Source of the DNA: an uncultured Candidatus Saccharibacteria bacterium
GTDB taxonomy: Bacteria; Patescibacteriota; Dojkabacteria; J137
Direction: 5' to 3'
DNA length: 64,000 nt
Assembly: GCA_964607415.1 (NCBI GenBank)
Contig: CAZSKK010000002.1
Span: 73,991 to 137,990 of the forward strand
How positions within the stretch are numbered: the stretch's first letter is position 1; the number at the start of each line of letters is the position of its first letter. The notes beneath the pieces are model-generated. The model was not told the origin of the DNA and made no database searches. It saw nothing but the letters and a program-made list of their open reading frames with translations. Positions 29,159 to 63,923 of this stretch are shown here, piece after piece. The translations under genes and the position numbers were made by a program.

Positions 29159-29354
29159 CAAATGCGTTTTACGTTTTGCATAAAGCGTTGTATGTATTAG
29201 CGCATTTGTCTGATGACAAGTACAATAAATTTTAAAAGATCACATCACGTTTAACATCATACTTCTAACGTTAAACGCTTATGAACTCTAAAAACTGAAT
29301 AGAAAAAAGTACTCCGAGCATTTGATATAAATACCAAGAAATGATTAAAAAATT

Positions 29355-32395
<3,041 letters not shown>

Positions 32396-32576
32396 ATTTT
32401 TTAATCAATTATATACCCGGTGTACTTTTTCTATTCAGTTGTTAAAGATCAAATACCACTTCCGTGGACGAAATCCGAAAATCGAATTCCGAAATTTATA
32501 TTACTTTATTTTAATACAAGATTTCGAATTTCGAATTTATATTTAGAATTTGCAATTTTGTTTATAAAATTGTTTT

Positions 32577-44650: not shown

Positions 44651-47092
44651 TTAGAATCCAAATGAAGGCATTCCGAAAGGATTTGATTTTTCTTTCTCCT
44701 CTTCTTTTATAAATGTACCTCTTAGCTTAACTTCATTTTCAATAATATTTCTATCCTTGCCGTATTTGAGTCTTGAAATCTGTTTAATTATATCTGAAAG
44801 CTCTGGATTTGGTGATGTAATCATACCAAATGGAGATTGATCATACATTGAAGTAATGGAGAATGGTGGTGTTGGCTTACCATCCACAAGCATTTTTATA
44901 AATGCATTTCTGTTTTCTACTTGAATTAAATCATTTCTCGTAAATGCCCCTTCAAACTCCTTTTCTAAAAATTCTGCATCATCAACCCCAACTCTGAATA
45001 CAGCCTTATTACCAACGTTTCCAAAAATAGCATCTCTAATTTTTGTATCCCCTCCAGTTCTTGTCAGCTGTCCTATAAACTGATGGCCTATCGTTAAAGA
45101 TAATTTGTACTTTCTAGCTTCCGACAAAATAATCATAATTCCATCAGTCAAGAAGTTTTGGAACTCATCTATGTACAAAAAGAACGGTTTTCTTTGACTT
45201 TCAGAAACACTTTCACGGCCAAGACCTGCAACCAGTAACTTACCTATTAAAATCATACCCAATAGATTTGCATTGAAGTCTCCAATTTTACCCTTTGAAA
45301 GCTTAGCCAAAAGAATTTTCCCATCATCCATAATATTTCTGAAATTTACTGTAGAATTTTGTTGAGCCACTATTGGTCTTACATAGGCATTTGACAAGAA
45401 ACTTGCAAGTTTTGAAGTAATGTATGGCGTCATATTCTTAAGTGATGCTTCTCCTCCTGCTTTTTCAGCCTGTTTTTTCCAGAAGTCAATAACTTCCTGG
45501 TCATCACACTTGGAAAGTTTATAAGCTCTATAGCCATCATCTGCAAAAATTTTAGGTATTTCTAGAAGTGTTGAGCCCGATTCTTTATCGGCGGTTAAAA
45601 GTAAGATTCCGTATCTCATATACTGCTCAAAAATAGGACCTCCAGTTTTTTTCAAATCGTATAGTGTATCAAAAATATTTAGCATTTCGTTAATTACAAG
45701 AGTTTTTTCTGCTTCAGTGTTGAATTCGAGCATGTTCAGGCCAATTGGTCTTTCAAGATCCGCTGGGTCAAAAACAACAACATCTTCGACTCTCTCTGGT
45801 GGTATTTGTTCCATTATCCTTTCTACATCAGTACCATGTGGGTCAATATAGGCACACCCATGCCCCATTTTTATATCCCTGATCATCATGCTGCTCATAA
45901 AATATGATTTACCAGAACCTGTCTGCCCAATAATGTACATATGCCTCAACCTATCATCAGGCTTAATAAAGATTTCCTTGGTTTTTCCTCTAAAAATGTT
46001 TCTCCCCATATACATGTAATCCTGTTGATATGCAGTTGTTACAAAATCCGCAGCTGGCATTTTGCTAGATAAAAGCCATTGTATGTGGGGAGTTGTTATT
46101 AGCTTGTTAGGGAAATGAAAAAGTGTCGCAAGCTCCGATGAGTTTAAAATCATAGACTCCCTTGGCAATCTGTACACAAAATCCTTTGTTATTTTCTTTA
46201 ATTTCTTTTTATCGACTTTCTTAAATCTATTGCCCCCTTCTTTTGTAAACTGATCAAAAGTACTAAGAATATTAGAAAGATGAGTGTTTGCTGACCCTTC
46301 CATATCGGAAACCACCACTACGCGCACGTCTGTTTGAAACCCAGATTTGCTTGCTTTCACATCGATCATTTCAAGAGTGTCTTCATTCACCTTGACCTTA
46401 CCCTTGTTATCGGGGTCACTCATCTTTTCTTTTATTTTTCTGATATAGTCTTTTGAATCATTTCGCCAGCTTGACCCTGCCGGGGTTATTACAACCTGAT
46501 ATGCGGCAGCTTCGTTTGATTGAAGCTTACTGAAAGCATCTAAAAGTGTAGCAAGAGGATCTACAGGAAGCTCTTCGTAATTTCTGACCGGTAATCTTGA
46601 TTCTTTATCTAATGTAAGTGCAGCAAAAGCAACAGATGCATCATCAGGGAATAAATTGTACTCTTTTACTCTATTAATTTCTGCCTCAGGATAATTACCA
46701 TTAATTTGCCTATCAACAAGATTCGCAATTTTTTCAGGGCAAACCACAAAAAACCTTATATTATCTTTGAACGCAACAATTTCAAAACTTACGAAAGTTT
46801 GGGCATCTAAATATTTTTGAAGTCTTTTTAATTTCTTCCCGATTCCAGTTAATCCTGTAAACATTTGGTCGGCAGCCTTAATCTCAATTTCATTATCTTG
46901 TGGTAATTTAACTTCAAAGTAAGCAAGGCCCAAAGATTTTTTCAAAGAAGACTTTTCTTTTATATTCTTTAGAAACTCCTTAAAAAGTCTTATTGCTAAA
47001 ATTGATATACCTGCAAGTACGACAACAACAGCTAGGATTGTTATCAAAAAACTTGCTATTGCATTTGTATCTACTGAAGGAGCATCGATCAT
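44651..47092 (-). CDS. Membrane-anchored FtsK/HerA-superfamily ATPase of type-IV-secretion type (VirD4/TraG-like, or a VirB3-VirB4-like fusion)
   Basis: 813 aa. N-terminal TM, Walker A IIGQTGSGKSY followed by IDPHGTD, Walker B FFLYIDEFQNF, then ...EARKYKLSLTIGHQFIGQL...AIFGNVGNKAVFRV..., the DEF/R-K-Y-G/HQ..QL motif series of conjugative coupling/transfer ATPases. Confidence 0.6.
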   Translation of the reverse strand: MIDAPSVDTNAIASFLITILAVVVVLAGISILAIRLFKEFLKNIKEKSSLKKSLGLAYFEVKLPQDNEIEIKAADQMFTGLTGIGKKLKRLQKYLDAQTFVSFEIVAFKDNIRFFVVCPEKIANLVDRQINGNYPEAEINRVKEYNLFPDDASVAFAALTLDKESRLPVRNYEELPVDPLATLLDAFSKLQSNEAAAYQVVITPAGSSWRNDSKDYIRKIKEKMSDPDNKGKVKVNEDTLEMIDVKASKSGFQTDVRVVVVSDMEGSANTHLSNILSTFDQFTKEGGNRFKKVDKKKLKKITKDFVYRLPRESMILNSSELATLFHFPNKLITTPHIQWLLSSKMPAADFVTTAYQQDYMYMGRNIFRGKTKEIFIKPDDRLRHMYIIGQTGSGKSYFMSSMMIRDIKMGHGCAYIDPHGTDVERIMEQIPPERVEDVVVFDPADLERPIGLNMLEFNTEAEKTLVINEMLNIFDTLYDLKKTGGPIFEQYMRYGILLLTADKESGSTLLEIPKIFADDGYRAYKLSKCDDQEVIDFWKKQAEKAGGEASLKNMTPYITSKLASFLSNAYVRPIVAQQNSTVNFRNIMDDGKILLAKLSKGKIGDFNANLLGMILIGKLLVAGLGRESVSESQRKPFFLYIDEFQNFLTDGIMIILSEARKYKLSLTIGHQFIGQLTRTGGDTKIRDAIFGNVGNKAVFRVGVDDAEFLEKEFEGAFTRNDLIQVENRNAFIKMLVDGKPTPPFSITSMYDQSPFGMITSPNPELSDIIKQISRLKYGKDRNIIENEVKLRGTFIKEEEKEKSNPFGMPSFGF

Positions 47093-48225: not shown

Positions 48226-50712
48226 TTAAAAATCTAATCTGATAACCTTCGTTCCATCTAATACATATATCTTTCTTGAAGCTTCATTAATTACTACTTC
48301 TTCAAGGCTAGAGAACATGTTTTCAGACCCTTTGTAAACAAACTGCTTAACAAATTTCATAGACTTCTGTTCGTTATCTTGAATCTCAAATAATAAGACC
48401 CTTTTATTTTTACCATCAGCAACAACCATAAAATTCTCAGACACATCAAAACTGGTAGCAGAATTCATTGCAGTATAATCTGAGCTAACAAGACCACTAA
48501 AGGTGTCTTGGGTAATAGTATTATCGCCTCCCCCAAGGTATCTTCTAATACCTTTTCCTGAAATCAAAACGTATATTTCGTAAGGTGTTGCAATATCTAT
48601 AGCATTCGCAAGTTCAGGATCTGTTTTCCAATTAGGTGGATTTGTTGCGACATACAGAACACCTCCGCCAACAAACTCATTACCATTCCTATCTCTTTTG
48701 AAAATTTGTTGATGATTTTGATGAATTTCGTAAATTGCTTGGTTGCCTTCAAATACTGAGGCTTCAACAACTTTTCCAATAATTGCCTGAGCCGTACCAT
48801 TAATTCGAGTAAGCGAGTTCGATTGACCTTCTTTAAACCTACCTACTGATGCCGTTTGATCATTATCAAAAACTAGAATATCATTTGAAGGCTCCCTCAC
48901 TAGGAACATTGGTTGGCTTAAGCCTGTAATGTGTTCTTGTGCAGTTGAACCTAAATTTACACCTGTTTTGTATACAACATTTCTGGTTTTATCAGATATG
49001 AATAGGTTACCGTTAGAATATTCTAGATCCGAAAGACTTGCATTAGGAAATACTTTTCCAACATCAACAATTATCTGAGGTTCGGTAATACCATCAACTA
49101 AAAGTAGCTCATCTTTTTCTGTGCCTACCCGTCCGATTATCGTATCTAGCCTATCAGTAAATAAATCTTCTTTCTTTTGAGTTTCAGCACTAGATGCTAG
49201 ATTATTCAAACTTGCAAGAACAAGATTTTTTCTTTGTTCACCTTCATTTTTAGCAGTATCAACTTGTTGAGAAAGACTTTGCAATTGAAGTTCTAAGTTG
49301 GAAACTGCATTTTCAGCTTCATTAACTCTCCTCTTTTCTGCCCTATCACTTTGAGCTTTCCTGATACCAAAAAATAAAACTATAACTAAAATTACGGTTA
49401 CAATAATTAATAATCTTCTATTTCTTTTTAACTTGGAGCCTCGCAAATAGATATCTCTTCTATCACCCGTTCCTACAATTTGGGTCTTAAAAAAAGAGTA
49501 AATCTTGTTTGCTACTAAAGATATTTTGGCAGAAATGATGTTAATAATATGTGCATAAGTTTTCTTGTTATTTTTGAAATGAGCTTTTACTTTTCCATTC
49601 CAAACACCAGAGACCCCGGACGCGGCCTTCTTTGAAAAAATTTCAATTTTACCTGTAGATTCGCGTCCATATACATTATCTTCCAACAACGCTTCATCAT
49701 TTTCATACAAATCTTCCTTTTTGGACATTCTTGGAAGATCATCATCATATTCAAATTCATCATCATCTTCTTCTTCACGGTTTCTGAAGCTTTTGGCTTT
49801 ATCGATAAGGTTAGATGATTTTATTTTTACAGTAGCTTTTAAAGTTCGTAACTTTGAAGTCCATTTGGATTTCAGCGAAATATCCTGAGCATCCTCATCT
49901 ACTTCTAATGCCTCTTCATCTTCAATTACATCTAGTTGTTCTGCATCATTTTTGTCTATTTCAACTGAAGAATGATCAAAACTGTTTGCAATATTTTTTT
50001 CTAAATCATCGTCGTGTTCTATGTCATCGCTTCTTACATCTTCGAGCTCTTGTACAAAAGGCATTTCCCATGACTGCTCTTCATCGCCAATCATTAAAAA
50101 CGCCCATCCGATCTTTGCTTTAATTTCATCCAGCGAGATCAAATTTTTATCATTCATTACTTTTTCAACAAGACTACTTCCGTCTTGCGCCACTTTTGAA
50201 GTTGCCAATGCAACAAGATCTGTTGATTCCAATTCTAGGCTTCCACTTTTCATAAAGCCGCTTTGCGCAGCATCAATCAAAACTTTTGATATTTCAATTG
50301 TTTTTTCACCACGCTTTACGTAAATCTTACTTTCTCCAATTACCAGTGCATACATAATATTTCCTACTATAACGCACACCGCCATTTCTAAATCTAATCC
50401 TTCTTTCAAAATATCTTCCTCTCGAGATAAGACAAAGTCCATTTTAGACTTCATTGACCAAACAGCATTTTCAAGCCTAGCAAGAATCTCGCTTTCCTCT
50501 GAAGAATCATAGTAAGCATTTTGAAGCTCATCAACCATTATTTTAGCAACAGGCTCTACATTTACGTCTTTGGCTGTTGTTTTTAAACGTGTTACAGCAA
50601 AAATGTCCCCAAGTCTTTCATGGATTTCAAGCTCCTTAGGGATATAACCGTAAATGCCAGCCCAGTCATAACCCAGTAATTTTCCAAATGTAAATTCAGT
50701 TCGTAAGTTCAT
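48226..50712 (-). CDS. Large bitopic membrane protein with an N-terminal cytoplasmic domain, acidic linker, TM, coiled coil and a C-terminal beta-propeller-like extracytoplasmic domain
   Basis: 828 aa. Has a DE-rich stretch (...EDEEALEVDEDAQD..., ...EEEDDDEFEYDDD...), the TM LLIIVTVILVIVLFFGI, a coiled coil (...NLELQLQSLSQQVDTAKNEGEQ...), and then beta-rich repeats. Confidence 0.4.
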   Translation of the reverse strand: MNLRTEFTFGKLLGYDWAGIYGYIPKELEIHERLGDIFAVTRLKTTAKDVNVEPVAKIMVDELQNAYYDSSEESEILARLENAVWSMKSKMDFVLSREEDILKEGLDLEMAVCVIVGNIMYALVIGESKIYVKRGEKTIEISKVLIDAAQSGFMKSGSLELESTDLVALATSKVAQDGSSLVEKVMNDKNLISLDEIKAKIGWAFLMIGDEEQSWEMPFVQELEDVRSDDIEHDDDLEKNIANSFDHSSVEIDKNDAEQLDVIEDEEALEVDEDAQDISLKSKWTSKLRTLKATVKIKSSNLIDKAKSFRNREEEDDDEFEYDDDLPRMSKKEDLYENDEALLEDNVYGRESTGKIEIFSKKAASGVSGVWNGKVKAHFKNNKKTYAHIINIISAKISLVANKIYSFFKTQIVGTGDRRDIYLRGSKLKRNRRLLIIVTVILVIVLFFGIRKAQSDRAEKRRVNEAENAVSNLELQLQSLSQQVDTAKNEGEQRKNLVLASLNNLASSAETQKKEDLFTDRLDTIIGRVGTEKDELLLVDGITEPQIIVDVGKVFPNASLSDLEYSNGNLFISDKTRNVVYKTGVNLGSTAQEHITGLSQPMFLVREPSNDILVFDNDQTASVGRFKEGQSNSLTRINGTAQAIIGKVVEASVFEGNQAIYEIHQNHQQIFKRDRNGNEFVGGGVLYVATNPPNWKTDPELANAIDIATPYEIYVLISGKGIRRYLGGGDNTITQDTFSGLVSSDYTAMNSATSFDVSENFMVVADGKNKRVLLFEIQDNEQKSMKFVKQFVYKGSENMFSSLEEVVINEASRKIYVLDGTKVIRLDF

Positions 50713-51950: not shown

Positions 51951-53711
51951 CTAATGCACGCTAATATAAAACGTCTGGCTGTAAATATAATCTAGTCTTC
52001 CTGTATCGTACGACCATGAATTCCAAATGTTTTTAAACCACCATCCTCCAATTGATCTAGTTTGACCTGTGCTACCAGTTAACCAAACTCTTTTTACCCT
52101 TTGCGACGCGTCTCTTTCAAATCCAACACCTGTAACGTTACCAATAGCACTCTTAAGACTTCCTGCTTCGTTACTTACATTGGGTGCATATGGCCCAGAT
52201 GGGTTTGCTGCGTAATTAAGCATTTCGTCAATATGAGTAAAATTATAGTTACCTGTATTGTAGTGCCAATTTGTCCACTGAGTGTATGCCGCGTAAGCAT
52301 TATCATTAACTGCTCTCAAATATCCGACAGGAGTACCATAACCGGAAAAGTTTTGCCATATTGTATCGTTATCTGCTGTCCCATTTCCTTGATTGTTATC
52401 AGAAGAATATAGCGCATCAATCACTTGCCCTGCGTATGTAATTACTTGCCCTCTTGTTTCATCTGCGGCCCATCTAGTATATTGCCCACCATTGTACACT
52501 TGAGACCTTGCATCACTATACAACCACCCTCTGCTAATACCATACGTTCTGAAGGCAATAACTTGTGCTTTTATAGCCTCTTCCGGCCAACAGTCCCAAG
52601 GAGTTGAAGTATTATCTACTACATACTTATCAGGTCTTGCATCTCTTTGTTCTTGTGTTCCGCAAGCTCTTCCAGGAACTTCGCCTTGACCTGCAACATA
52701 ATTCTCCACATTAATAACCCCATAACCATCAACCGTTACAGAAGCATTTTCATATCCTGTAGCGATCGCAACATTTGTATAATAAAAATTAATAATATTC
52801 TGAGCAGTAAATCCATGGCTTAAGGCCATTCCATAAGCCCCCCATTGGCTCATACCGACTCCATGTCCTTGATATAAATCTCTTCCAACTCCAAAAAAGT
52901 TTAACTGTGTTCCTTCGTTTATGGTTCCGCCATTCCCATTTTCCTGCTCTAAAATCCATTTTTCTCTTTCGTATGCAGATTTTTGTTCATCTAAAAGATT
53001 ATTTATTTGTTTTTGTATGTTCTGCGACTGGTTTTGTAATGTACTTACTTGCCCGTATGTACTTGCAGCAAGTGAGTTTAAATAAGCAACTCTAGCCTCA
53101 AGTTCCTTTTTTTTGTTTTCCAAGTCAGCATTAATCTGTTCTAGTTTTTTAAGCTGTTCTTGATAATCAGAAATTTGCCCATCTAAATCCCGAAGGTCAT
53201 CAATTATTAAGTTGATATCAATATTATCGTCTTTAAGAACAGTAGCATTGTACTGCTCTGTTTTATTAAAATCATATTGAGTTTTAGCAATAGAATTTGC
53301 AATTGGATTATTAGTTCTCCAATCCATGTAAGAATTTCGAAGTGATAGTGATTGTCTTGCCAGTCTTTCTTCTTTTTCTAGCTCCTTAAGTTTTTGCTCA
53401 GAAATAACTATTTCCAGTAACGTTTCGTTATATTTTTTTTCAGCAGTAAGTTTTTCTATTTCAGCCAAGATTGTTGCAAGTTCACCTTGAGCGCCATTTA
53501 GGTCTGTAACTTTTGCGTTAAGATCTTGTTGTGCTTTTTCAAGATCCTGTTTAGTTTTATTTAATGTTGCGTTTTGAGCATCAATCTCTGCTTGAATTTC
53601 TGCAGATGACCGAGCCTGTACAAGAGAAATGAAACTAAAGCTAGAAATAGCCAGGATTAGTATTACAGTTATTATTTCCGTAAGTTTATTTTTTATCATG
53701 TTAAAAAACAA
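51951..53711 (-). CDS. Secreted or membrane-anchored coiled-coil protein with a C-terminal SpoIID/LytB-like domain (peptidoglycan-remodelling)
   Basis: 586 aa. Signal/TM, about 250 aa of coiled coil, then ...GHGVGMSQWGAYGMA..., the SpoIID/LytB signature. Confidence 0.55.
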   Translation of the reverse strand: MFFNMIKNKLTEIITVILILAISSFSFISLVQARSSAEIQAEIDAQNATLNKTKQDLEKAQQDLNAKVTDLNGAQGELATILAEIEKLTAEKKYNETLLEIVISEQKLKELEKEERLARQSLSLRNSYMDWRTNNPIANSIAKTQYDFNKTEQYNATVLKDDNIDINLIIDDLRDLDGQISDYQEQLKKLEQINADLENKKKELEARVAYLNSLAASTYGQVSTLQNQSQNIQKQINNLLDEQKSAYEREKWILEQENGNGGTINEGTQLNFFGVGRDLYQGHGVGMSQWGAYGMALSHGFTAQNIINFYYTNVAIATGYENASVTVDGYGVINVENYVAGQGEVPGRACGTQEQRDARPDKYVVDNTSTPWDCWPEEAIKAQVIAFRTYGISRGWLYSDARSQVYNGGQYTRWAADETRGQVITYAGQVIDALYSSDNNQGNGTADNDTIWQNFSGYGTPVGYLRAVNDNAYAAYTQWTNWHYNTGNYNFTHIDEMLNYAANPSGPYAPNVSNEAGSLKSAIGNVTGVGFERDASQRVKRVWLTGSTGQTRSIGGWWFKNIWNSWSYDTGRLDYIYSQTFYISVH

Positions 53712-53773: not shown

Positions 53774-55108
53774 CTATTCTTTTACATAAAACACCTGTCC
53801 CACCACATTATTTTCTTTAAGGAACTCTTTAATTTGCTGTACCAATTGAGTTTGAGTGCCGCCGTTACTAACTACAAAAAGCGGCATAACTTCATTATAA
53901 ACATTACTAGTATTACTGGCAAACCCTGTTGACGAAAAATCAGTAGGTGCTAGGTTTTTAAGCCGCTCTTTTAAAGCTGTATACTCTTCTCTACTCATAG
54001 AATTTAGAGCAGTTGTAATTATTGCCGCATTCATCTTTGCAAGTTCTTTACTTTTATTATCTAACTCTACTCTAAAGTCATTATAAGTTCTATTATGTAA
54101 AATATTTAAAATGCTAGACTGAAGTTTTTGAAGTTCGGTTTCCAGAGCTTTTGCCCAAGCCGATTTTACAAAAACAGCATTTCTCGATTCGTGAATGTCG
54201 GTAGGATTTGGCTCAACTTCTGGCTCTTTGTTATAAAATTGTAAATCAACTGGGGATTCCAATAAATTGAGTAATATTAAGTTTAATATTTGAAGAAACA
54301 AACCAAATAAACCTACTATTATAACCGTTTTAGAAAAAGATCCGAAATAAAGGCTTACTGTTATTAGAAATTGCAAAATAATAAGAATCAATAACCCCTT
54401 TGCTCTGAAGGCAAAATCATCTTCATCTTTACGGACAAGGAAATTTGCAAAAGAATTTGTAAGTTGTAGTTTTTGCTCTCCGAAAAGTCTTTCTGCTTTA
54501 AGCTCACTAATATTTTTTCCCGCAAGATCACGATTTACTTCCTGCTTATAAAATGAAAGGTCATCTTTAATTGCATTTTGAATTATCATGTAATCCTGAA
54601 TTTCAATGCTAAGCTTTTGCATGTTATCTACCTCTTGCTCTTTTTCTTGGGCTTTTATCTCTGTTTTTACTACAAAATCCATTTTCTGCTCGTAGTCCTT
54701 AATTTTTTGAAAGTCGGATTTTAAGCTATTTGTAGATTCTTTGAGTTTAATATTTTTTTGTTCAAGAAGAGTTTTAAAATCCTCAATTGAAACTGCACTC
54801 TCAATGTTTATTATCCTTGAGTTCAGATTTTCTTGTGTAAATTCTTGATTTGTGATTTTTGAAATATATTCAAAAAAATTTTCGAAGGTATGATTTCCAT
54901 CTATATATAAATCCAGCGTGCCTTTTGAATAATCCTTTTTTAATTTGAGCTTTTGTCCTGAAAAGTCAAAATCTATTTCAATAAGTTCTTTAGTAAAATT
55001 TGCAAAACCATAAAGATCAGCAAGTTCTCTAAAAACTTTTTGAGGCAAATTTTTAGAAAGATCTACTGCTGAGTTATCGATTTTGACAGATATTAATGAA
55101 ATACTCAT
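53774..55108 (-). CDS. Hypothetical membrane protein with a central TM hairpin
   Basis: 444 aa. Predicted helical soluble halves flank LLILIILQFLITVSLYFGSF...IIVGLFGLFLQILNLILLNLL. Confidence 0.35.
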   Translation of the reverse strand: MSISLISVKIDNSAVDLSKNLPQKVFRELADLYGFANFTKELIEIDFDFSGQKLKLKKDYSKGTLDLYIDGNHTFENFFEYISKITNQEFTQENLNSRIINIESAVSIEDFKTLLEQKNIKLKESTNSLKSDFQKIKDYEQKMDFVVKTEIKAQEKEQEVDNMQKLSIEIQDYMIIQNAIKDDLSFYKQEVNRDLAGKNISELKAERLFGEQKLQLTNSFANFLVRKDEDDFAFRAKGLLILIILQFLITVSLYFGSFSKTVIIVGLFGLFLQILNLILLNLLESPVDLQFYNKEPEVEPNPTDIHESRNAVFVKSAWAKALETELQKLQSSILNILHNRTYNDFRVELDNKSKELAKMNAAIITTALNSMSREEYTALKERLKNLAPTDFSSTGFASNTSNVYNEVMPLFVVSNGGTQTQLVQQIKEFLKENNVVGQVFYVKE

Positions 55109-55191: not shown

Positions 55192-55932
55192 TTAATACCT
55201 AATCCAAACACCCCCACTACATTCATATGTATCAAAAGCAGGCACTGCACCGCCTCCAACTTGATTGCATGTATGTGTCTGCCCTTCTGGAGCACATGCG
55301 TATCCTGAAGCATCGGGTTGAGAAAAATTACATGGATCTCCAACCATCAAGCCCTTAGGATCTGTACAAAGTTCAGGGAAGAAAAATTGAAATCTTGGTA
55401 AAGTGTCGAATTGGTAACACTTAACATCTCCATTTAACCCCAAAACTCTAAAAAAGGTAGTCAAAATAGGGATAGCTGTAAATACTAGAATAAAGCCTAA
55501 AACATAATTTATTATTCTTTGCCTTATTGCAGTAATTTTTGTTACATCACCTCGAGTAATTGTATATTGATAACCAAGATAGACTAACATTAAAAATGAG
55601 AATGATCCCACCAAACCCCATACGATATATACTACCCTTACAAACCAAACTTCTGCCTGTTGTAGTTTAGGAGGTCTTAAAAGTGCTTTCTCTGTAGATA
55701 TTATTGCGCCTGATCCATCTTTATACAAACATTGGCAAAGTTGTTTTGAAGAATCATATATTAATTGCGACGAACCGCCGCTCACGTCTCTACATTGATA
55801 ACTACTGCAACTTGAGCTATTAGCTGAAAAATCAAAATCCTGAAACTGTGCAGAAGCATTTCTTATAAGTGAAAGAAATGAGAAAGATGCTACAAATACG
55901 AATAATGTAGCTATAAATGCCCTGCTACCCAT
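55192..55932 (-). CDS. Signal-peptide, Cys-rich membrane protein
   Basis: 246 aa. Signal peptide, Cys-containing mature N-terminal region, two TM helices, Cys-rich C-terminal tail. Confidence 0.4.
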   Translation of the reverse strand: MGSRAFIATLFVFVASFSFLSLIRNASAQFQDFDFSANSSSCSSYQCRDVSGGSSQLIYDSSKQLCQCLYKDGSGAIISTEKALLRPPKLQQAEVWFVRVVYIVWGLVGSFSFLMLVYLGYQYTITRGDVTKITAIRQRIINYVLGFILVFTAIPILTTFFRVLGLNGDVKCYQFDTLPRFQFFFPELCTDPKGLMVGDPCNFSQPDASGYACAPEGQTHTCNQVGGGAVPAFDTYECSGGVWIRY

Positions 55933-55944
55933 AATGTTTTTGAA

Positions 55945-56418
55945 TTAAATTGGTAAATCAATTCCAAAACCATCATCAGGTCTATCAACTTCATCTTGGC
56001 TCAAGCCACCTGTAGCATTGAAGAACGCAATTACAACCACAATCCCTATAATTCCTATAAATAATGCTGCAATTCCAATAAATACACTCTTTATTGCTTT
56101 TTGTGCTTCTTGAATTTTATCAGCATCTCCTTCACTTCTAATATACTTAACAGCAGCCTTAATGATAATGTAAATTGAAACAACAATAATTCCAACAAAT
56201 ACTAGTGATAGCCCGAATTGGACAAGTCCTGCAGTTGTATCCACTGCGTCTTGGGCACCTGTTGTTTCACCAGTACATAAAGAATCGCTTAAAAAAGATA
56301 CATTCTTTAAAAATGGGAATATATCGTCACAGATTACGTTTTGTGCATGTACATTTGGTGTATAAATAGAGAAAAATGAAACTACTAATAAAAGAACACT
56401 TAAAACTTTTCTTTTCAT
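55945..56418 (-). CDS. VirB2/TrbC-like pilin paralogue 1
   Basis: 157 aa. Signal peptide, Cys-containing N-domain, TM, charged loop KAAVKYIRSEGDADKIQEAQKAIKSV, TM. Confidence 0.5.
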   Translation of the reverse strand: MKRKVLSVLLLVVSFFSIYTPNVHAQNVICDDIFPFLKNVSFLSDSLCTGETTGAQDAVDTTAGLVQFGLSLVFVGIIVVSIYIIIKAAVKYIRSEGDADKIQEAQKAIKSVFIGIAALFIGIIGIVVVIAFFNATGGLSQDEVDRPDDGFGIDLPI

Positions 56419-56470
56419 TTTTTTTGTTTGATTTAAAAGATAAGTAACGAATTAAGTATAATTTACAATA

Positions 56471-56995
56471 TTAATCTACAAATGGCAAGTTTGAGCCAGG
56501 GTCTGGGGATTCCAAATCAGGCGAAAATATTCCAGAACCACTAAATAACCCAACCACTACTATCAAACCTATTAATCCTATAAATATAACAGCGATCCCT
56601 ATCATTACTGCTTTTATTCCAGCAAATCCTTCCTGAACCTTTTCTGCATTTGATTCAGCTCTGATTATTGTAAGGCTGGCCTTGATAACTAAAAAGATTC
56701 CATAAATAATTATTAAAACAAAAATTATACTTAGCCCAAAACTTACATATTCTTCTATAGTATTATTTACAGCATCTTCGGAGGACCCTTGATCTGGATT
56801 TAATGGACCAGGACAAGGAAATATATCGCAGAAGGTAAAGCTGTCTGCACTTGAAGCCTGGACGGTGTTTCTGCCTAGAAATGGAGATATTGTAAACACA
56901 GTAAATGCAAATAGCCCTAAGGACATAGCGTATAGCGTATAGCGTATAGCTTGTTGTCTTTTCATTTTCCATTTTTCATTTTTCATTTCTTTCAT
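56471..56995 (-). CDS. VirB2/TrbC-like pilin paralogue 2, with 5' heptanucleotide repeats
   Basis: 174 aa. Same topology, loop ...KASLTIIRAESNAEKVQEGFAGIKAV... The 5' end contains (ATGAAAA)n-like and (CGCTATA)x3 repeats. Confidence 0.5.
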   Translation of the reverse strand: MKEMKNEKWKMKRQQAIRYTLYAMSLGLFAFTVFTISPFLGRNTVQASSADSFTFCDIFPCPGPLNPDQGSSEDAVNNTIEEYVSFGLSIIFVLIIIYGIFLVIKASLTIIRAESNAEKVQEGFAGIKAVMIGIAVIFIGLIGLIVVVGLFSGSGIFSPDLESPDPGSNLPFVD

Positions 56996-57086
56996 ATTAA
57001 TTGCTTATGGGTTAGAGATTTACGTGTTTGCGCTATGCTGAAAGAACTTTTGAACTCATTAACTCGCTAACACAAAAACACACAAA

Positions 57087-57668
57087 CTATTGTATAAAAC
57101 ATACACTATCCGCTTCTTCTTTTGAGTCAAGCAACCCAAATGCCTGATAATAGTATTGTACTTCTTTACCATCAATAGTAGTATTGCATTCTCTAAAAGC
57201 TAAAGGCCAATTCCACACTGCTCCAAGTCCCAAGAAAGCACCAACGACTACAATAATTATTGGGAAAACGAAGGTAAGTGCTGCACCTTCTAGAACCGCT
57301 CTAACTTTTTTTACTGCCTCTTGCAACCCTTCTTGGTTTGACGCATTTTTCATGGCTTTTATTCCTGTCATTACAATTTTTATAATCCAAAATATCACAA
57401 TCGCTAATAAAACTACGTTAAAGCCAAAAGATATATATGACATTGTTGTGCTGTATTTAGTATCAAGTGCAAGCTGGGGGAAAAATGGAACTTTTATTTG
57501 CTCCAATCCTACGTTGTCATCAATATTAAAATCTTCATTAAAGTCTACGGATTGCCCCACAACATTTGTAGACAGAAACGTAAAGCTCAAGATTAGGCAT
57601 ATACCGACTAGCGAATAGCTTATAGCGTATAGCGTATTATTGTTTTGCTTGTTCAATTTGAATCCCAT
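57087..57668 (-). CDS. VirB2/TrbC-like pilin paralogue 3, with 5' heptanucleotide repeats
   Basis: 193 aa. Same topology, loop ...MTGIKAMKNASNQEGLQEAVKKVRAV.... The N-terminus is encoded by ACGCTAT-ACGCTAT-AAGCTAT-TCGCTAG heptads. Confidence 0.5.
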   Translation of the reverse strand: MGFKLNKQNNNTLYAISYSLVGICLILSFTFLSTNVVGQSVDFNEDFNIDDNVGLEQIKVPFFPQLALDTKYSTTMSYISFGFNVVLLAIVIFWIIKIVMTGIKAMKNASNQEGLQEAVKKVRAVLEGAALTFVFPIIIVVVGAFLGLGAVWNWPLAFRECNTTIDGKEVQYYYQAFGLLDSKEEADSVCFIQ

Positions 57669-57744
57669 TTATTTAGATTAATACTCGTTTAAAGTTATAA
57701 GGTTAGAATGTTTTAACGTTGAAACATTACAACATTTTAACCAG

Positions 57745-58383
57745 TTACGTTATAGTTATTACTGTTCCTGGATCTGGATCACCCAGAATTATTAACTGAT
57801 TTAAACTACCCAACCCTAGTGCGCTGAATACCAATTGTACTATTATAATCACCATCCATAAAAGTATAAACCCAGGAATTATCGCCTTCAAAATTTCATT
57901 ATATATAGCTTGTATTTCTTCTGGATTTTCAGTATTCGCTCTTTTTACTGCTCCAAGATAAACTCCTCTGCCTAATGCATATAGCGAACCTGCGCCTAAA
58001 GTTGTAGTAATCAAGACATTAATTAATGCTACAAGCTTTCTATTTGATTTGACATAAAATCTAGTACCAAAAGCGTCAACTTCGTCAAAAACTTCAGGCT
58101 CTGTAATACTGCTTGATGAGCCTCTGCACTTATTATTACAACAAATGGTTGTAGGATTTAATATCTTTGCATTTACGCACTGGAAATCTGGTTCGTAACA
58201 GTCCGTATCCTCGCTATTTTCACACGCCCTTGGACATGAAACAGGTGTACCAAGTGGAGGTAGACAATCAGAAGTACCTTTAACCTTCTGACTTTCTGGT
58301 ACTGTTAACGCTACTAAAAATATGAAAACAGCAGAAAATAATATAATAAAAAATTTTAGTCGATTTAGTTGAGACATAGTCAA
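57745..58383 (-). CDS. VirB2/TrbC-like pilin paralogue 4, Cys-rich N-domain
   Basis: 212 aa. Signal peptide, Cys-rich domain with about 11 Cys, TM, loop ...LGAVKRANTENPEEIQAIYNEILKAI..., TM. Confidence 0.45.
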   Translation of the reverse strand: MTMSQLNRLKFFIILFSAVFIFLVALTVPESQKVKGTSDCLPPLGTPVSCPRACENSEDTDCYEPDFQCVNAKILNPTTICCNNKCRGSSSSITEPEVFDEVDAFGTRFYVKSNRKLVALINVLITTTLGAGSLYALGRGVYLGAVKRANTENPEEIQAIYNEILKAIIPGFILLWMVIIIVQLVFSALGLGSLNQLIILGDPDPGTVITIT

Positions 58384-58412
58384 TAATTAAGAATAGGAAT
58401 CAAACAAGGCTT

Positions 58413-58892
58413 CTAAATTGTAAAAAGTTGATCTGTTCCCAACAATCCAGCAACTGCGTTTACAATTGTTGGTGCTAAAACTGCTATAGCAAATCCTGTT
58501 GCCGCTGCAATTATAATCTTTGTACTGCTTGCAATTTTCTCTGCATCTGTTTTGGCAGTTAATCTAACCCACCCTCCATATAAAACCATTGCTCCAAATG
58601 TTAAGATAAAAATAGGTCTGATTAAAGAAGTGGCTACATTGATTAGTTCTTCTAGACTATCGTATTTTGAAGGATTTGGAATTGTGTAATCAAACTCCTG
58701 AGCAGAAACTCCAAAGAGTTTTCCTGCAAAAGCAAGTACAAAAAGAAATGATGTAATTGTTAAGAACAGCTGTTTTGATTTTTTCATGCATACTTGTGTC
58801 ATCCCGAGGGAAATCGAGGGATGAATTATATAAACGTATGTCATGGTTCGATTTCCCTCACCATGACAACTGACCTTAATATACTTTCGCAT
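58413..58892 (-). CDS. VirB2/TrbC-like pilin paralogue 5; the true start is likely the internal MKKSKQLF...
   Basis: 159 aa. Signal peptide, short N-domain, TM, loop ...VRLTAKTDAEKIASSTKIIIAA..., TM. The annotated N-terminal 36 aa overlap the upstream clp-like gene and a hairpin region. Confidence 0.45.
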   Translation of the reverse strand: MRKYIKVSCHGEGNRTMTYVYIIHPSISLGMTQVCMKKSKQLFLTITSFLFVLAFAGKLFGVSAQEFDYTIPNPSKYDSLEELINVATSLIRPIFILTFGAMVLYGGWVRLTAKTDAEKIASSTKIIIAAATGFAIAVLAPTIVNAVAGLLGTDQLFTI

Positions 58893-61461
58893 CTAACCCA
58901 TCAAATTCAACACCTTTTCCACTAACCAATTCGCGACTAATAATCAAATCTGCTAGTTTGTCTTCAATTGTGTCTTGCACTATTCTTCTTAGTTCTCTTG
59001 CACCGTAAACAATGTTATACCCAAGTTTAGTTAATTCATTAAGTGTTTCCTGATTCCACTTTAGGTCCATTCCTTTGTCGTTCAATCTTTTGTCTATATC
59101 ATTTAACATTATTTCGCAAATTTGTTCAACTTCTGATTTATTTAGTGGCTTAAACATTACGATTTTATCAAATCTATTTAAAAACTCGATTCTATAAATT
59201 TTTCTAAGTTCTGGTAAAGTTTGGGTTTGTATATCTTCGTATTTAATATTTTTTGCTGTCAATTCTGCAATTTCTTTCGATGCGGCATTACTCGTTGCAA
59301 TAATAATTGTATTAGAGAAATCAATAACTCTACCAGCCCCATCAGTAATCCTTCCATCGTCCAATATCTGAAGAAATAAATCAAGAACTTTTGGATTTGC
59401 TTTTTCTAATTCGTCAAGAAGGATTAAACTGAATGGTCTTGATTTAACAGCTTCTGTTAGAAGCCCGCCCAAATAGTTTCCGTTAGAATCTGAATATCCG
59501 ATCAATCTATTCAAATTCTTATCCTCGTGAAATTCTGACATATCAAGCCTAATCATCAACTTCTCGTCACCATAATAAAGCCCCGCCAGTGTCTTTGCTA
59601 CTTCCGTTTTCCCTACTCCTGTAGGGCCATAGAACAAAAAAGAAGCCACAGGCCTTCTGCCACTTGCTAAACCTGACCTTGATCTTCTTAAAGCACTTGC
59701 TACCGATCTTATTGCCTGATCTTGTCCTATTACTCTTTTATGCATTTCTTGTTCGAGGCTTTGAAGTAGTTTCGATTCTTCATCAGAAATACTCCCAACA
59801 TTTACACCTGTTTTTTTCTTTAATAATTCATCTACAGTATTTTCATCAACAAATTTTAAGCCTAAATTTTTTGCTGTTATAAAAGATTCTTCCAAAAGTG
59901 CTATCCCCTTGTCTGGCATTGATCTTTCGTATTCAAATTTTGGGGCAAATTCTACAATTCTTTTTATTGCTTTAAATCTTATTGGTATTTGATATTTTGA
60001 CTCAAGTGGTTTTACTTCATCCAAAAGTATTTGCAATGAAAGATTACTTGCAGGTTCGTTCAAAAATACTGTTGAAAATAAACTTGCCAGATTTTTAAGT
60101 GGCTTAACACCCTGGTTGTAATACTCGTTTGTGGTTGTAGCAATCACTTTAATATTGCTTTGACTAATCATATTTACAATCAAATTAATTACTTCCAATC
60201 GACCTTCAGTTCTAATTGTTAAAACTTGAGAGAAATCCTCTAAAACCAAAACAATATTTCCAGATGAAACTATTTCTTCCAGAATTTTTTGTAAGTTCAT
60301 CTTAAAATTATCGATTGAAGAAGATTTTGTAAAAACTTTATTTAGATCAATAACAACCATTCTGTAATCTTTTAAAGAATCAGGAACATCTTCAACAACC
60401 ATTTTTGTTGCTATGCTTCGCAGAAAATGAGTTTTTCCAACTCCCGGCTCTCCAATTAAAAGGCATGCCGCACCATTTTTTCGCTCTAAAATTCTGAATA
60501 AATCTGTAGTTTCAGATTCTCTGCCAATCATTACTTCAAAGTTATTAGTAGCCGCCTGAGTTGTAAAGTCAGATCCAAATGTATCCAAAGTTGGAGTAGC
60601 TTTAGAAGTGTATGCCCTGTTAATTGCACCCTTTGGTTTTAATTTAGATAAACGTTGCCAGATTGTAAAGTACTGAGATTTTGTTCTTTCATTCTTAATC
60701 CACATCCTTAAGCCTTGAATTTCAAGCTCGCCAATATCTAAATCTTTTAAAGGTTGATTCCAGTAAAATCTTGCCAATGTTGTTAATAAAACCACTTCAT
60801 CGATTTTATTAGCCTCAAGAGTTAAAGCTTCATTAAATACGCGTAAAAATAGATCCTTAAAATTTGTATCAAAGCTTGTATCTTTTGTTTTAAAGTATTC
60901 AATAATTCTTTGTCTAATGATTGATTGCTCTGCACCTAGTCTACTTAGAACAATCTTGGAAATTTCAGGATTTTGTAAAATATTGTCGGATAATGCAAGA
61001 AGAAATTGCGAATCGTATTTAAAATAGATTTTATCTATCAAATTAAAAACCGAATCTGAAAGATAATTATCTATTTCTACATTGTGTAATTTGCCATCCG
61101 CCTTTATTTTCTTTTTAACGTGAGTAAGCTCCAAATCTTCCCAGTTTTCGCCAAATTGATTTTTATTTCGATTTAGAAATAAAGAATAAAGAATGAAAAA
61201 TATTGAAAAATAAGGAATCAAAAACAGAGTTTTGGTCGGGGAAAAAACTTCTTTCACTTCAAAACTTCCGTTTAGGATTATAAGCAAATATGGAATTATT
61301 AATATAAATAGCCCTAAAAACAGAACGAATTTTGCAGCATTTTTTTCAATTGCGTCTTTGGATTCATGTTCACCATGGAACCTAAATAAATCATCAAAAT
61401 CTATAACCAGATTTAGATTTGAAAGGGTTCCTATTTGTGTTTTGCCTTTATAGATTTTCAT
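58876..61461 (-). CDS. Membrane-anchored double-AAA+ ATPase of the Clp/Hsp100 (ClpA/ClpB-like) family
   Basis: 861 aa. N-terminal TM helices, D1 Walker A LLIGEPGVGKTHF, D2 Walker A FYGPTGVGKTEVAKTLAG, ...LILLDELEKANPKVLDLFLQILDDGRITD... and sensor-2 ...GARELRR... motifs. No Clp_N domain. Confidence 0.7.
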   Translation of the reverse strand: MKIYKGKTQIGTLSNLNLVIDFDDLFRFHGEHESKDAIEKNAAKFVLFLGLFILIIPYLLIILNGSFEVKEVFSPTKTLFLIPYFSIFFILYSLFLNRNKNQFGENWEDLELTHVKKKIKADGKLHNVEIDNYLSDSVFNLIDKIYFKYDSQFLLALSDNILQNPEISKIVLSRLGAEQSIIRQRIIEYFKTKDTSFDTNFKDLFLRVFNEALTLEANKIDEVVLLTTLARFYWNQPLKDLDIGELEIQGLRMWIKNERTKSQYFTIWQRLSKLKPKGAINRAYTSKATPTLDTFGSDFTTQAATNNFEVMIGRESETTDLFRILERKNGAACLLIGEPGVGKTHFLRSIATKMVVEDVPDSLKDYRMVVIDLNKVFTKSSSIDNFKMNLQKILEEIVSSGNIVLVLEDFSQVLTIRTEGRLEVINLIVNMISQSNIKVIATTTNEYYNQGVKPLKNLASLFSTVFLNEPASNLSLQILLDEVKPLESKYQIPIRFKAIKRIVEFAPKFEYERSMPDKGIALLEESFITAKNLGLKFVDENTVDELLKKKTGVNVGSISDEESKLLQSLEQEMHKRVIGQDQAIRSVASALRRSRSGLASGRRPVASFLFYGPTGVGKTEVAKTLAGLYYGDEKLMIRLDMSEFHEDKNLNRLIGYSDSNGNYLGGLLTEAVKSRPFSLILLDELEKANPKVLDLFLQILDDGRITDGAGRVIDFSNTIIIATSNAASKEIAELTAKNIKYEDIQTQTLPELRKIYRIEFLNRFDKIVMFKPLNKSEVEQICEIMLNDIDKRLNDKGMDLKWNQETLNELTKLGYNIVYGARELRRIVQDTIEDKLADLIISRELVSGKGVEFDGLDAKVY

Positions 61462-61536: not shown

Positions 61537-61854
61537 TCACAATATCATTCTTGCCACCTGCACCAACGGCAGAAATGGCAACACAATTAAAATTAATAAC
61601 GCCAAGAAATAAGGCATAATCATTATTACTGAAAACAAAGTACCAAATCCAATCCACCAAAATCTAATAAATACACCAATGAATTTACCAGCGCCTGTGT
61701 TATCTCCAAACATTGGTACAAACAAATTTTTAGCCATGGGTAGTGTATTTGTAAGGTTTAGTAAAAACACAAACCTGTACAAAGTGAGCCTAAAAAAGCT
61801 CCTAACTTTAACAAGATAGTACCAGTAGAAGAAGTTTATAAAGTATTCATTCAT
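61537..61854 (-). CDS. Small polytopic membrane protein
   Basis: 105 aa, 3 hydrophobic helices. A hairpin repeat element lies immediately upstream. Confidence 0.35.
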   Translation of the reverse strand: MNEYFINFFYWYYLVKVRSFFRLTLYRFVFLLNLTNTLPMAKNLFVPMFGDNTGAGKFIGVFIRFWWIGFGTLFSVIMIMPYFLALLILIVLPFLPLVQVARMIL

Positions 61855-61873
61855 ATATTAAGCATATTCTACT

Positions 61874-62254
61874 TACTTCTCCTTAAGGAGAAGTCGATTT
61901 TGCCTTTGTGCAAAATCGGATGAGGTTTTTAAATTAACTCTTAAAGATATTGTATATGAAGTAGCGAAAGAGGAAAAGAGCAAATTAGGTACAAGATTTA
62001 GAGGTAAAGAGCAAAAGAGCTAAACAGGTTAGAGGTATGAGGTTAGTGGTTAGAGGAATAGAGCAAGAGAGGCTTGAGGTAAAGGGCGAAAGAGGTAGAG
62101 AGGTGAAAAGGTTTAGAGCAATAGAGAGCAAATGGTTGGATTTCCTCTCCCTCTGGGAGAGGACTTAGGTGAGGGTGTGATCAGAAAGCTTTAGGCTCAC
62201 CTCACCCGTACTCACTGCGTTCGTACGACCTCTCCTCAAAAGGAGAGGAAATTA
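61874..62254. repeat. Second locus of the multi-hairpin element family, split by a ~210-bp GAGG-rich degenerate tandem-repeat tract
   Basis: 61874-61930 reads cttctcc-ttaag-gagaag / tcgattttgc-N-gcaaaatcga / tgagg. 62141-62254 reads cctctcc-ctctgg-gagagg ... ggtgagg...cctcacc ... cctctcc-tcaaaa-ggagagg-aaatta. Compare 35298-35392. The intervening 61931-62140 holds about 15 GAGG/AGAGG motifs. Confidence 0.55.
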
Positions 62255-62405: not shown

Positions 62406-63923
62406 CTAACGCTGAACCAGGTTTCCATTTCTATCATAACTCTGCCCTGCCCATTTGCTGAGTTTATCTTCCACAACAAGCCTTGGCTGGGCGTAAGTTT
62501 TTCGGGACATATCTTTTATTTGATTTTTAAGGCCAAAATTTTCAAACTTTGCTGGCAGCGAAATTGCAGTAAACGGTTTGGTTTGTGTTCCGTCAATAGT
62601 CATTTTTAGAACAATTCTAAATCGCTCAAGGTTTACCAAATCTTCTCCTGTTAAATAAGGTGAATACTCTTTTTCCAATCGATTTGCGTCTTTTGGTCCA
62701 ACAACAAAGTTAATCATTGTTCCAACATTTCCAAAGATTGCATCTTGAATATTTCTATCAAGTTGATCAATATATTGATGTGCTACAACTAAATTTAGAC
62801 CATATTTTCTGGCTTCAGATAGGATTTTTACAAAAGTTTCTGTAGAAAAGTTTTGAAATTCATCAACGTATAAATAAAAATCTCGTCTTTCATTTTCAGG
62901 CATTTTGGCCCGCTGCATTGCATTTGTGTAAAGCCTTGTAATTAACATTCCACCTAAAAGCATGCTATTCTCCTCTCCAATTTTTCCTTGAGATAGATTA
63001 ATCAAAATGATTTTTCCTGAGTTCATTGCTTCCTGCAAATCAACAGTAGATTTAACTTGGCCAATCATATTTCTAATCATTGAAGAGCTTAAAAATCTTC
63101 CCACTTTATTTTGAATTGGCGATAGTGTATCCGAAAGCAATTTTTGATTTTTCGCCATTTCGGCAAATTCAACATTCCAGAATTTTAGTAAAAACGGATC
63201 TTTTACTTGTTTTAATAAAAATCTTCTATAATTCTCGTCAGTTAAAATCCTTTGCACAGCAACTAAAGAAACATTTTGGCAATTTAGCAAAGTTAAAATT
63301 GTTGTAGTTAAAATATATTGAAGCCTTGGTCCCCACGATTCGCCAAAAAGCCTTTTGAAAGCTGTAACAATTCCATCTGCCAGAAGTTCCTTTGACTCAC
63401 CTTCTTTTAAGTCCAGCATGTTTAGTGCTACAGGAAAGTCGGTATCCGATGGATCAATATAAATTACGTCTTTCATTCTGTGTTCTGGAATATAGTTTAG
63501 AAGTTCTTCAACCGCATCCCCATGTGGATCAATAAATGCAAGTCCTTCACCGCTCAAAATATCACCGTAAATCATATTTTTTAACATTACAGATTTTCCA
63601 GCTCCTGTTTTTCCAACAACATACATATGCCTTCGTCTATCTTCTTTTTTAATTCCAAAAGGTGTATGTATGCTTCTAAAATCGGTTACGGCAAAAAGTC
63701 TTGCGTTTTCAGTTGGTAGGTCCAAAGGCATCTCAAGCTTACGGGAGTTTGCCCAATTGATTTTTGGCGTTTGTACAGATTCGTTTGGAAGGTGATAAAT
63801 TGATGCAACTTCTTCAATATTTAAAATTCCTGTTTCAAATTCGTTTAAAAATCTTTCGGAAAATTTGTGCTTTAAATCTAGTTTTTGATTTTGCCTTTGA
63901 CCTTTAATGCTATCTTTAATCAT
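62406..63923 (-). CDS. Second, soluble FtsK/HerA-superfamily type-IV-secretion-type ATPase, paralogous to the C-terminal half of the 44651..47092 protein
   Basis: 505 aa. Walker A VVGKTGAGKSV followed by IDPHGDAV, ...YIDPSD...ALNML..., Walker B FYLYVDEFQNF, and ...EARKYGLNLVVAHQYIDQL...AIFGNVGTMINFVVGP.... Confidence 0.6.
   Translation of the reverse strand: MIKDSIKGQRQNQKLDLKHKFSERFLNEFETGILNIEEVASIYHLPNESVQTPKINWANSRKLEMPLDLPTENARLFAVTDFRSIHTPFGIKKEDRRRHMYVVGKTGAGKSVMLKNMIYGDILSGEGLAFIDPHGDAVEELLNYIPEHRMKDVIYIDPSDTDFPVALNMLDLKEGESKELLADGIVTAFKRLFGESWGPRLQYILTTTILTLLNCQNVSLVAVQRILTDENYRRFLLKQVKDPFLLKFWNVEFAEMAKNQKLLSDTLSPIQNKVGRFLSSSMIRNMIGQVKSTVDLQEAMNSGKIILINLSQGKIGEENSMLLGGMLITRLYTNAMQRAKMPENERRDFYLYVDEFQNFSTETFVKILSEARKYGLNLVVAHQYIDQLDRNIQDAIFGNVGTMINFVVGPKDANRLEKEYSPYLTGEDLVNLERFRIVLKMTIDGTQTKPFTAISLPAKFENFGLKNQIKDMSRKTYAQPRLVVEDKLSKWAGQSYDRNGNLVQR

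Follow-up and report, generated by a model that had tools for sequence, protein, structure and literature searches.

A conserved tandem array of six probable VirB2-like pilin genes in a Dojkabacteria-like genome

What is built by a row of short, mutually divergent membrane proteins encoded one behind the other on a bacterial chromosome, and do the copies form a variable surface repertoire or a set of subunits with fixed roles? The question is raised by a tandem array of six pilin-like genes in a 64,000-nucleotide (nt) stretch of contig CAZSKK010000002.1, here called the window, from an uncultured bacterium labelled Candidatus Saccharibacteria. Judged from profile comparisons, all six products very probably belong to the VirB2-like pilin family PF18895 (T4SS_pilin) of Patescibacteria, and comparison between genomes indicates that the array is of long standing, its six specialised subunits being a fixed set that evolves under ordinary purifying constraint. 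The array probably specifies a heteromeric pilus-like surface structure within the apparatus of Patescibacteria that resembles a type IV secretion system (T4SS), and the odds that the proteins really form an extracellular filament are at best even.

The array consists of six consecutive open reading frames (ORFs) on the minus strand at 55192–58892, which encode 246, 157, 174, 193, 212 and 159 amino acids (aa), are separated by gaps of 12–91 nt, and are named pA to pF in order of increasing coordinate. The original prediction, made from the letters of the window and its ORF translations, had described five tandem pilin-like genes. The minus-strand array is real and the five ORFs are present at the coordinates given, with 157, 174, 193, 212 and 159 aa, but a sixth member, pA at 55192–55932, which adjoins pB 12 nt downstream, had been overlooked. 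Moreover, the last ORF (58413–58892) had been taken too long, as every pF orthologue begins at MKK..., equivalent to a likely start at 58787. Over its additional 105 nt the ORF runs across the stop of the upstream gene and takes in a stable stem-loop, and an exact look-up of the long ORF gave no match because its start was over-called. The exact pB protein is present on 11 metagenome contigs.

Read from its likely start, pF (58413–58787, minus strand as all members) is a short VirB2-like pilin of 124 aa, in which the signal peptide ends in ...VSA/QEF and is followed by an invariant (I/V)PNP-x2-Y-x2-LE and then by a helical hairpin; its mature part is free of Cys. The 212-aa pE (57745–58383) carries, in front of the hairpin, an N-terminal ectodomain with 8 Cys, most of them conserved in the orthologues, and the 193-aa pD (57087–57668; 3 Cys) has a C-terminal extension past the second transmembrane (TM) helix with two conserved Cys. 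The start of pC (56471–56995; 174 aa, 2 Cys) may be M11 at 56965, and pB (55945–56418; 157 aa) has a short N-terminal loop between its two conserved Cys, C-x2-FPF-x(9-11)-C. The largest member, pA, has a beta domain on the N-terminal side of the hairpin and a Cys-rich one on the C-terminal side, with 10 Cys in total, and the alignment of its orthologues displays invariant Cys in both terminal domains. Several of the five ORFs had been called Cys-rich, which applies only to pE among them and to the overlooked pA.

In a Kyte-Doolittle scan all six proteins had an N-terminal hydrophobic segment ending in a small-x-small, A-x-A/Q-like site (VSA/QEF, VHA/QNV, ASA/QFQ), followed by two strong hydrophobic helices with a charged loop of 21–32 residues between them. 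The proposed layout of signal-peptide-like N-terminus, TM helix, charged loop and TM helix was thus recovered in each member, and the conserved charged inter-helix loop, likewise proposed, is visible in the multiple alignment as [KR]-x(3-4)-[DN]-x-[DE]-[KE]-[IVL]-[QAT]...K. Over 39 orthologues, the inter-helix loop contains 15.6 Lys plus Arg per 100 residues, compared with about 5 outside it, and no Cys in 922 residues, when Cys frequencies are 5.2 per 100 residues between the signal peptide and the first TM helix and 4.4 after the second. None of the Cys falls in the loop, and nearly all are in the N- or C-terminal parts predicted to be extracytoplasmic. This composition fits an N-out/C-out orientation with a basic cytoplasmic loop, and matches both the positive-inside rule and extracytoplasmic disulfides. 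VirB2 and TraA propilins have the same N-out/C-out topology and cytoplasmic loop. Genomes of the candidate phyla radiation (CPR) are enriched in exported thiol-disulfide oxidoreductases (PMC6744442).

On the basis of the curated gathering threshold of PF18895 (26.6 bits), two of the six proteins, pF with 36.0–36.9 bits and pA with 31.5 bits, were assigned to the family directly. The others were joined to them via a network of profiles, and in this form the pilin identity first proposed for the genes is upheld. Pairwise phmmer comparisons were significant for pB, pC and pD only (6e-27 to 2e-11, the pair pB–pC giving 6e-27), and mutual identity of the paralogues, pB/pC excepted, is 13–25%. Profiles of the single-gene orthogroups, built from the positional counterparts in six other genomes, were therefore the more telling material: with hhalign, nine of the fifteen pairs were reported as matching at 92% probability or above (92–99.8%), and the network joins all six. 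Among them were pB–pC (99.8%), pB–pD and pC–pD (97.9% each), pC–pF (95.5%), pA–pF (94.2%), pA–pE (93.5%), pA–pB (93.4%) and pD–pF (92%); pE–pF reached 80.7%. Three neighbouring proteins with hairpins, u105, bPH249 and u444, served as controls and stayed below 3% against every pilin profile; the signal among the pilins is therefore more than hydrophobic composition. Homology of the six proteins to each other is supported by these profile alignments.

A profile of the six-member hairpin core retrieved 25 proteins from a collection of 5.8 billion sequences, nearly all of them already annotated as PF18895, and 5,053 clusters at E ≤ 0.001 from a library of 1.84 billion representatives. All 12 pF orthologues examined match PF18895, and four of these also match PF04956 (TrbC/VirB2; best E-value 5.6e-4), which is the next family by best E-value and is tied with two others on member count. 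None of the window proteins matched PF04956 at E<1, and the array would at best belong to a related superfamily, not to PF04956 itself. The sole NCBIfam match of the pF orthologues was NF045849 (Mbov_0395 pilin-like; 8 of 12, best 1.6e-6), to which five of the window paralogues, pB to pF, align weakly at 15–21 bits over nearly the whole 80-residue model, the cut-off being 40 bits. Neither a holin family nor any other was a competitor to these assignments. Homologues of pA numbered 43, several of which are labelled "pilin [Candidatus Dojkabacteria bacterium]" in NCBI.

The array is embedded in a conserved block, which was compared in seven genomes, i.e. the window and the fully analysed relatives L009–L014 (L007 is the genome of L013), with L017 included additionally at the level of gene calls. 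The gene order is u105, AAA+ ATPase, pF, pE, pD, pC, pB, pA, a u444-like gene, in some loci a SpoIID gene, bPH, u828, SmpB and u182. In an all-against-all BLAST of the pilins, each of the 42 proteins had its best match in the same-position gene of another genome.

AlphaFold2 was run on pF and pA as monomers. The pF model consists of the signal helix and a hairpin of residues 45–77 and 82–116 (pLDDT 77). In the pA model (pLDDT 74) a small beta domain is followed by the hairpin and by a Cys-rich C-terminal domain of poor definition. Foldseek against the PDB gave nothing significant, and the structure search with pA produced generic matches only. Fold comparison with the archaeal Ced/Ted pilins of Aeropyrum pernix (PDB 8dfu) and Pyrobaculum calidifontis (PDB 8dft) is supportive and not decisive, as the next, unrelated hairpin scores 6.8 and the margin over it is small; identity is 12%, and a hairpin is a simple fold. 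These archaeal pilins also belong to another domain of life and another gene context.

According to the mechanism that we consider probable, the six proteins would be exported by the Sec pathway and cleaved by signal peptidase, after which they would form membrane pools in the manner of VirB2 and TraA propilins. From these pools the subunits would assemble into one heteromeric pilus-like or stalk-like surface structure. The core would be provided by pF, a short, Cys-free protein that ranks among the two best-conserved members. To pA to pE would fall the part of accessory subunits, with their extra ectodomains directed outwards, mostly Cys-bearing and probably disulfide-stabilised, for contact with the host cell. 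Seen by analogy with Southlakia epibionticum, in which an array of six pilins is essential, the structure may serve an epibiotic lifestyle through attachment or exchange of material.

Five points weigh against this reading. Four of the six proteins alone are below the PF18895 threshold, pB with 12.6 bits and pC, pD and pE with no match, and the six-core profile returned no significant match to any solved pilin among the PDB sequences. The Pfam and NCBIfam scans covered the window ORFs of at least 100 aa other than those antisense to a scanned gene or inside rRNA genes, and among these ORFs of the 64-kb window no VirB4, VirB6 or PrgI/VirB3 was detected, and only two ATPases resembling type IV coupling proteins (T4CP). 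In the literature consulted on PF18895 arrays, a pilus made of such proteins is undocumented in any Patescibacterium. Finally, related proteins with several hairpins in one chain are no less compatible with a complex that stays in the membrane than with a filament.

In these poly-pilins (P0072, P0074, P0075, P0079, P0088 and P0115) a single signal peptide precedes 3–7 tandem PF18895 hairpin units, and no further signal peptide occurs inside the chain. Two of them, P0072 and P0074, are uninterrupted ORFs in their contigs and stand among further pilin genes; loci of poly-pilins are L016:76-1743 and L020:1777-3435. At least three hairpin units were present in about a quarter of the best 150 representative matches to the core profile, and no mention of poly-pilins was found in the literature consulted on Patescibacterial pilin arrays. 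Six was considered as a special number of units and rejected, as counts between 3 and 7 all occur without one being clearly favoured. The poly-pilins show that units act together in fixed stoichiometry.

The alternative that survives best is that the six hairpins stay in the membrane as a fixed hetero-oligomer, a 12-helix channel or platform from which no pilus is extruded. It gains weight because poly-pilins exist, i.e. natural single chains in real ORFs, and it would account for six distinct subunits conserved in order and number, for an array with no VirB4 next to it, and for the lack of a documented filament. We nevertheless regard it as unlikely, though the strongest competitor, since the family is related by sequence and fold to true conjugative pilins and the large Cys-rich terminal ectodomains suit surface display. 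Linked units may, in addition, be compatible with a filament, as both termini are on the outer surface in VirB2-type lattices such as the F- and T-pilus.

A narrower proposition, compatible in its wording with either a conduit or a stalk, is that all six paralogues are needed together as partners in a single, possibly non-filamentous heteromeric assembly whose composition is fixed, and do not replace one another as versions of a homopolymer pilin. This is put forward as a speculation with a rather low chance of being right, drawn from synteny and gene fusions: in Dojkabacteria neither the number nor the order of the orthogroups varies, arrays of six genes are met again in Saccharibacteria (Southlakia epibionticum ML1, TM7x) and in the unrelated lineage L015, and natural poly-pilins exist. 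If true, the assembly would represent a new architecture with T4SS pilins as its origin, a membrane-spanning conduit or composite stalk for exchange between epibiont and host, and it may be serviced by the co-inherited membrane ClpB-like AAA+ ATPase instead of an adjacent VirB4.

The original prediction had itself explained the tandem copies as a diversifying repertoire of a surface-exposed subunit, and the same idea, extended to the switching of host strains, might be read from the low mutual identity of the paralogues, their strongly different ectodomains and the precedents of the VirB2 arrays in Bartonella and Anaplasma (PMC12102498); slippage at the heptamer repeats that pC and pD carry at their 5′-ends would likewise be conceivable in principle. 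Comparison between genomes speaks otherwise. Each paralogue has a positional orthologue in the six other genomes, with identities to the window protein of 46–52% for pF, 48–54% for pB and 42–46% for pA, and of 34–43% for pE, 31–36% for pD and 32–36% for pC. The whole range of 31–54% is comparable to that of SmpB (44–50%), and the pilins diverge at about the same rate as SmpB and the neighbouring AAA+ ATPase (42–51%). No DNA cassettes shared between the genes and no inter-gene repeats longer than 37 nt were found. Moreover, the window is matched at 100% identity over 1.7–3.9 kb, repeat numbers included, by six independent metagenome contigs, which come from five sequencing runs. The complete orthogroups, the ordinary rate, the missing cassettes and the invariant assemblies taken together, antigenic variation is therefore not supported, and a diversifying repertoire is very unlikely. 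Of the functional variation that had also been suggested, what stands is a fixed specialisation of subunits, not an ongoing diversification.

The heptanucleotide repeats lie, on the coding strand, at the 5′-end of pC (56925–56950 and 56959–56988), where (ATGAAAA)x4.3, with its ATGs in different frames, is directly followed by a perfect (CGCTATA)x3.7, and at that of pD (57609–57637), where (ACGCTAT)x~4 is related to the pC repeat. None occurs in the orthologues of the other genomes. As judged from their layout, the repeats would allow frame-shifting slippage; phase variation by this route was considered and found no support, the copy numbers being identical in the six assemblies.

That the genes encode soluble effectors secreted by Sec, the older reading of the TM7x array, which a TM7x transcriptome paper lists as "six putative effector genes", is highly improbable: signal-peptide-like N-termini are indeed present in all six proteins, but every member has two strong, conserved TM helices after the signal peptide, and the membership in the PF18895 pilins points the same way. 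The pilin assignment was to be checked against holins and other small membrane protein families. That the products are holins, or unrelated membrane proteins of small size from a prophage or mobile element, hardly comes into consideration, as the one holin match obtained (pB, PHROG, E 0.023) is not significant, no significant holin family was found in Pfam or PHROG, no phage genes are nearby, and from genome to genome the block keeps its synteny with housekeeping genes, without a plasmid DNA match and with uniform GC content, for which last three reasons a mobile-element origin in general was rejected.

The six-gene array has its nearest known counterparts in Patescibacteria. In a search of 3,035 Patescibacteria genomes with PF18895 and PF04956 (Quinonero-Coronel 2025, PMC12102498), VirB2-like pilins were reported in 1,948 assemblies, in 1,135 of them near virB4, so that a place near virB4 is not obligatory, together with 441 arrays of 2–11 pilin genes in 383 Patescibacteria assemblies with a mean identity of 25%. 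The same work speculated on antigenic variation or versatility in host range, and its main text contains no discussion of Dojkabacteria/WS6. In Southlakia epibionticum, six PF18895 pilins of the T4SS cluster, SEML1_0014–0019, are essential for epibiotic growth (Wang 2023, PMC10633639; also PMC12857230), and the role of the T4SS-like system with its pilin array has been called "completely unknown" (PMC11665869).

The window array shares with the arrays of ML1, TM7x and the 441 catalogued loci the PF18895 family, the chromosomal tandem arrangement, the signal peptide followed by a hairpin, a mutual identity of about 25%, and the absence of a relaxase among the window ORFs scanned with Pfam; with ML1 and TM7x it shares six members. 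It differs from these arrays in not being adjacent to VirB4, VirB6 or PrgI, in its flanks, a membrane ClpB-like AAA+ ATPase and a conserved Dojkabacteria-specific block, and in that the ectodomains at the N- or C-terminus of several members are larger and Cys-rich.

A further array of exactly six tandem PF18895-like genes was observed at L015:8294-12783, in a distant Patescibacterium represented by a 1.2-Mb contig labelled Saccharibacteria. It has varied Cys-rich ectodomains and one 469-aa member with a large N-terminal domain, its surroundings are housekeeping genes, and no T4SS component was found within 10 kb. One-to-one orthology between this array and that of the window was tested, and none was detected.

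With the VirB2/TrbC/TraA pilins of PF04956, the six proteins have in common a signal peptide, two hydrophobic helices, a basic loop and N-out/C-out topology, with a weak sequence bridge through the four pF orthologues mentioned above. In contrast to those pilins, they belong to a monoderm host and bear extra ectodomains, none of the window proteins reaches PF04956, and no evidence of cyclisation or acetylation was found for them; a classical VirB2 system has one major pilin, against six paralogues here. NF045849 of Mycoplasma (Mbov_0395 / MMCAP2_0565), which derives from monoderm MPF-FATA-type elements, is similar in sequence, although it is a single gene in a mobile conjugative element and not part of a chromosomal six-gene array, and the scores are below 40 bits. 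The VirB2 arrays of Bartonella and Anaplasma, thought to act in immune evasion in animal hosts, resemble the present one as tandem, sequence-divergent paralogues, and differ in that here the orthogroups are conserved and no ongoing variation was seen.

The window represents a low-GC (ca. 33%) chromosome of uniform composition, with an rRNA operon and genes for ribosomal proteins, NusG, Rho, PolA, FtsH, two MreB, ComEC, ComEA and DprA. Related loci were found under the names "Candidatus Dojkabacteria" and "Patescibacteria group bacterium BroJett037" and in metagenome-assembled genomes labelled Saccharibacteria. On the basis of the homologue names and related genomes, the host is Dojkabacteria (WS6)-like.

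Directly upstream of pF in all related genomes is the gene of the membrane AAA+ ATPase (58876–61461, minus), an 861-aa ClpB/ClpA-like double AAA+ protein with two N-terminal TM helices and no Clp_N domain; a canonical ClpB/ClpC with Clp_N is encoded at 24782–27355. Synteny alone suggests a possible functional tie between the ATPase and the array. Upstream of the ATPase, and preceding the array in the related genomes, is u105 (61537–61854, minus), a conserved small membrane protein of 105 aa. In one relative the u105 and AAA+ pair comes after GroES, GroEL and ClpP, and the pair may belong to a proteostasis cluster rather than to the pilin system. Further upstream, at 62406–63923 (minus), is a 505-aa T4CP-like P-loop ATPase (VirD4/TraD-like).

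Downstream, the array is followed by u444, the SpoIID protein, the bPH membrane protein, u828, SmpB, the 182-aa protein and the second T4CP-like ATPase. The conserved neighbour u444 (53774–55108, minus; 444 aa) has a central TM hairpin and is fast-evolving, with 20–22% identity to its positional counterparts. The SpoIID/LytB coiled-coil protein (51951–53711, minus) occurs in some, not all, syntenic loci; it is a candidate peptidoglycan-remodelling enzyme and possibly an analogue of VirB1. The 828-aa u828 (48226–50712, minus) is a conserved single-pass membrane protein with no Pfam or PDB match, syntenic in all related genomes, whose apparent layout, read from the sequence, runs from a cytoplasmic domain at the N-terminus through a strongly acidic linker and a TM helix to a coiled coil, and whose C-terminal part may be rich in beta-strands. 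As a hidden VirB4 or VirB6 it was rejected, being single-pass, without a P-loop and without a PDB match. The second T4CP-like ATPase (44651–47092, minus; 813 aa, with DUF8128, DUF87, TrwB and TraG-D_C) is at the far end of the syntenic block. Neither this protein nor the 505-aa ATPase was accepted as a VirB4, since the best matches of both are coupling proteins (TraD, VirD4, DotL).

A stable RNA stem-loop (58797–58868, minus), formed by a 28-nt inverted repeat with 13 perfect core pairs (-30.1 kcal/mol, z -2.8), is found in the 88-nt spacer that separates the AAA+ gene from pF; it is immediately upstream of where pF probably starts and inside the over-extended pF ORF. It is specific to the window genome, as the spacer is only about 20 nt in the relatives. 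Shine-Dalgarno motifs were not apparent in front of the pilin genes, and promoter and terminator scans were at chance level only. The spacer between u105 and the T4CP-like gene contains a match to the Rfam family whalefall-1, a small RNA (61873–61927, plus; 39.6 bits against a gathering score of 37, E 7e-7), followed by tandem repeats of 31 nt and 14 nt at 61969–62056. The 23S rRNA match at 29344–32403 is 3,060 nt long when the model has 2,925 positions, which suggests an insertion of ca. 135 nt in the gene; insertions in rRNA genes are said to be common in CPR bacteria.

A large part of the bacterial diversity that is uncultured is accounted for by Patescibacteria. They are dependent on hosts, and the means by which they take up material from these hosts is an open question; in the one species tested, a T4SS-like system with a six-pilin array is essential (Wang 2023, PMC10633639). 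This kind of locus is already known, and homologues of its products are already named pilin in NCBI. What is new is the finding of six orthogroups in the same order in seven genomes, by which a second class, Dojkabacteria/WS6, is added with a conserved and specialised set of such subunits. The locus also shows that an array can sit apart from VirB4. The hypotheses are narrowed to a heteromeric structure, for which the pF core and the conserved Cys patterns of pA, pB, pD and pE are the targets, and the fused poly-pilins provide a natural experiment on the stoichiometry of its subunits.

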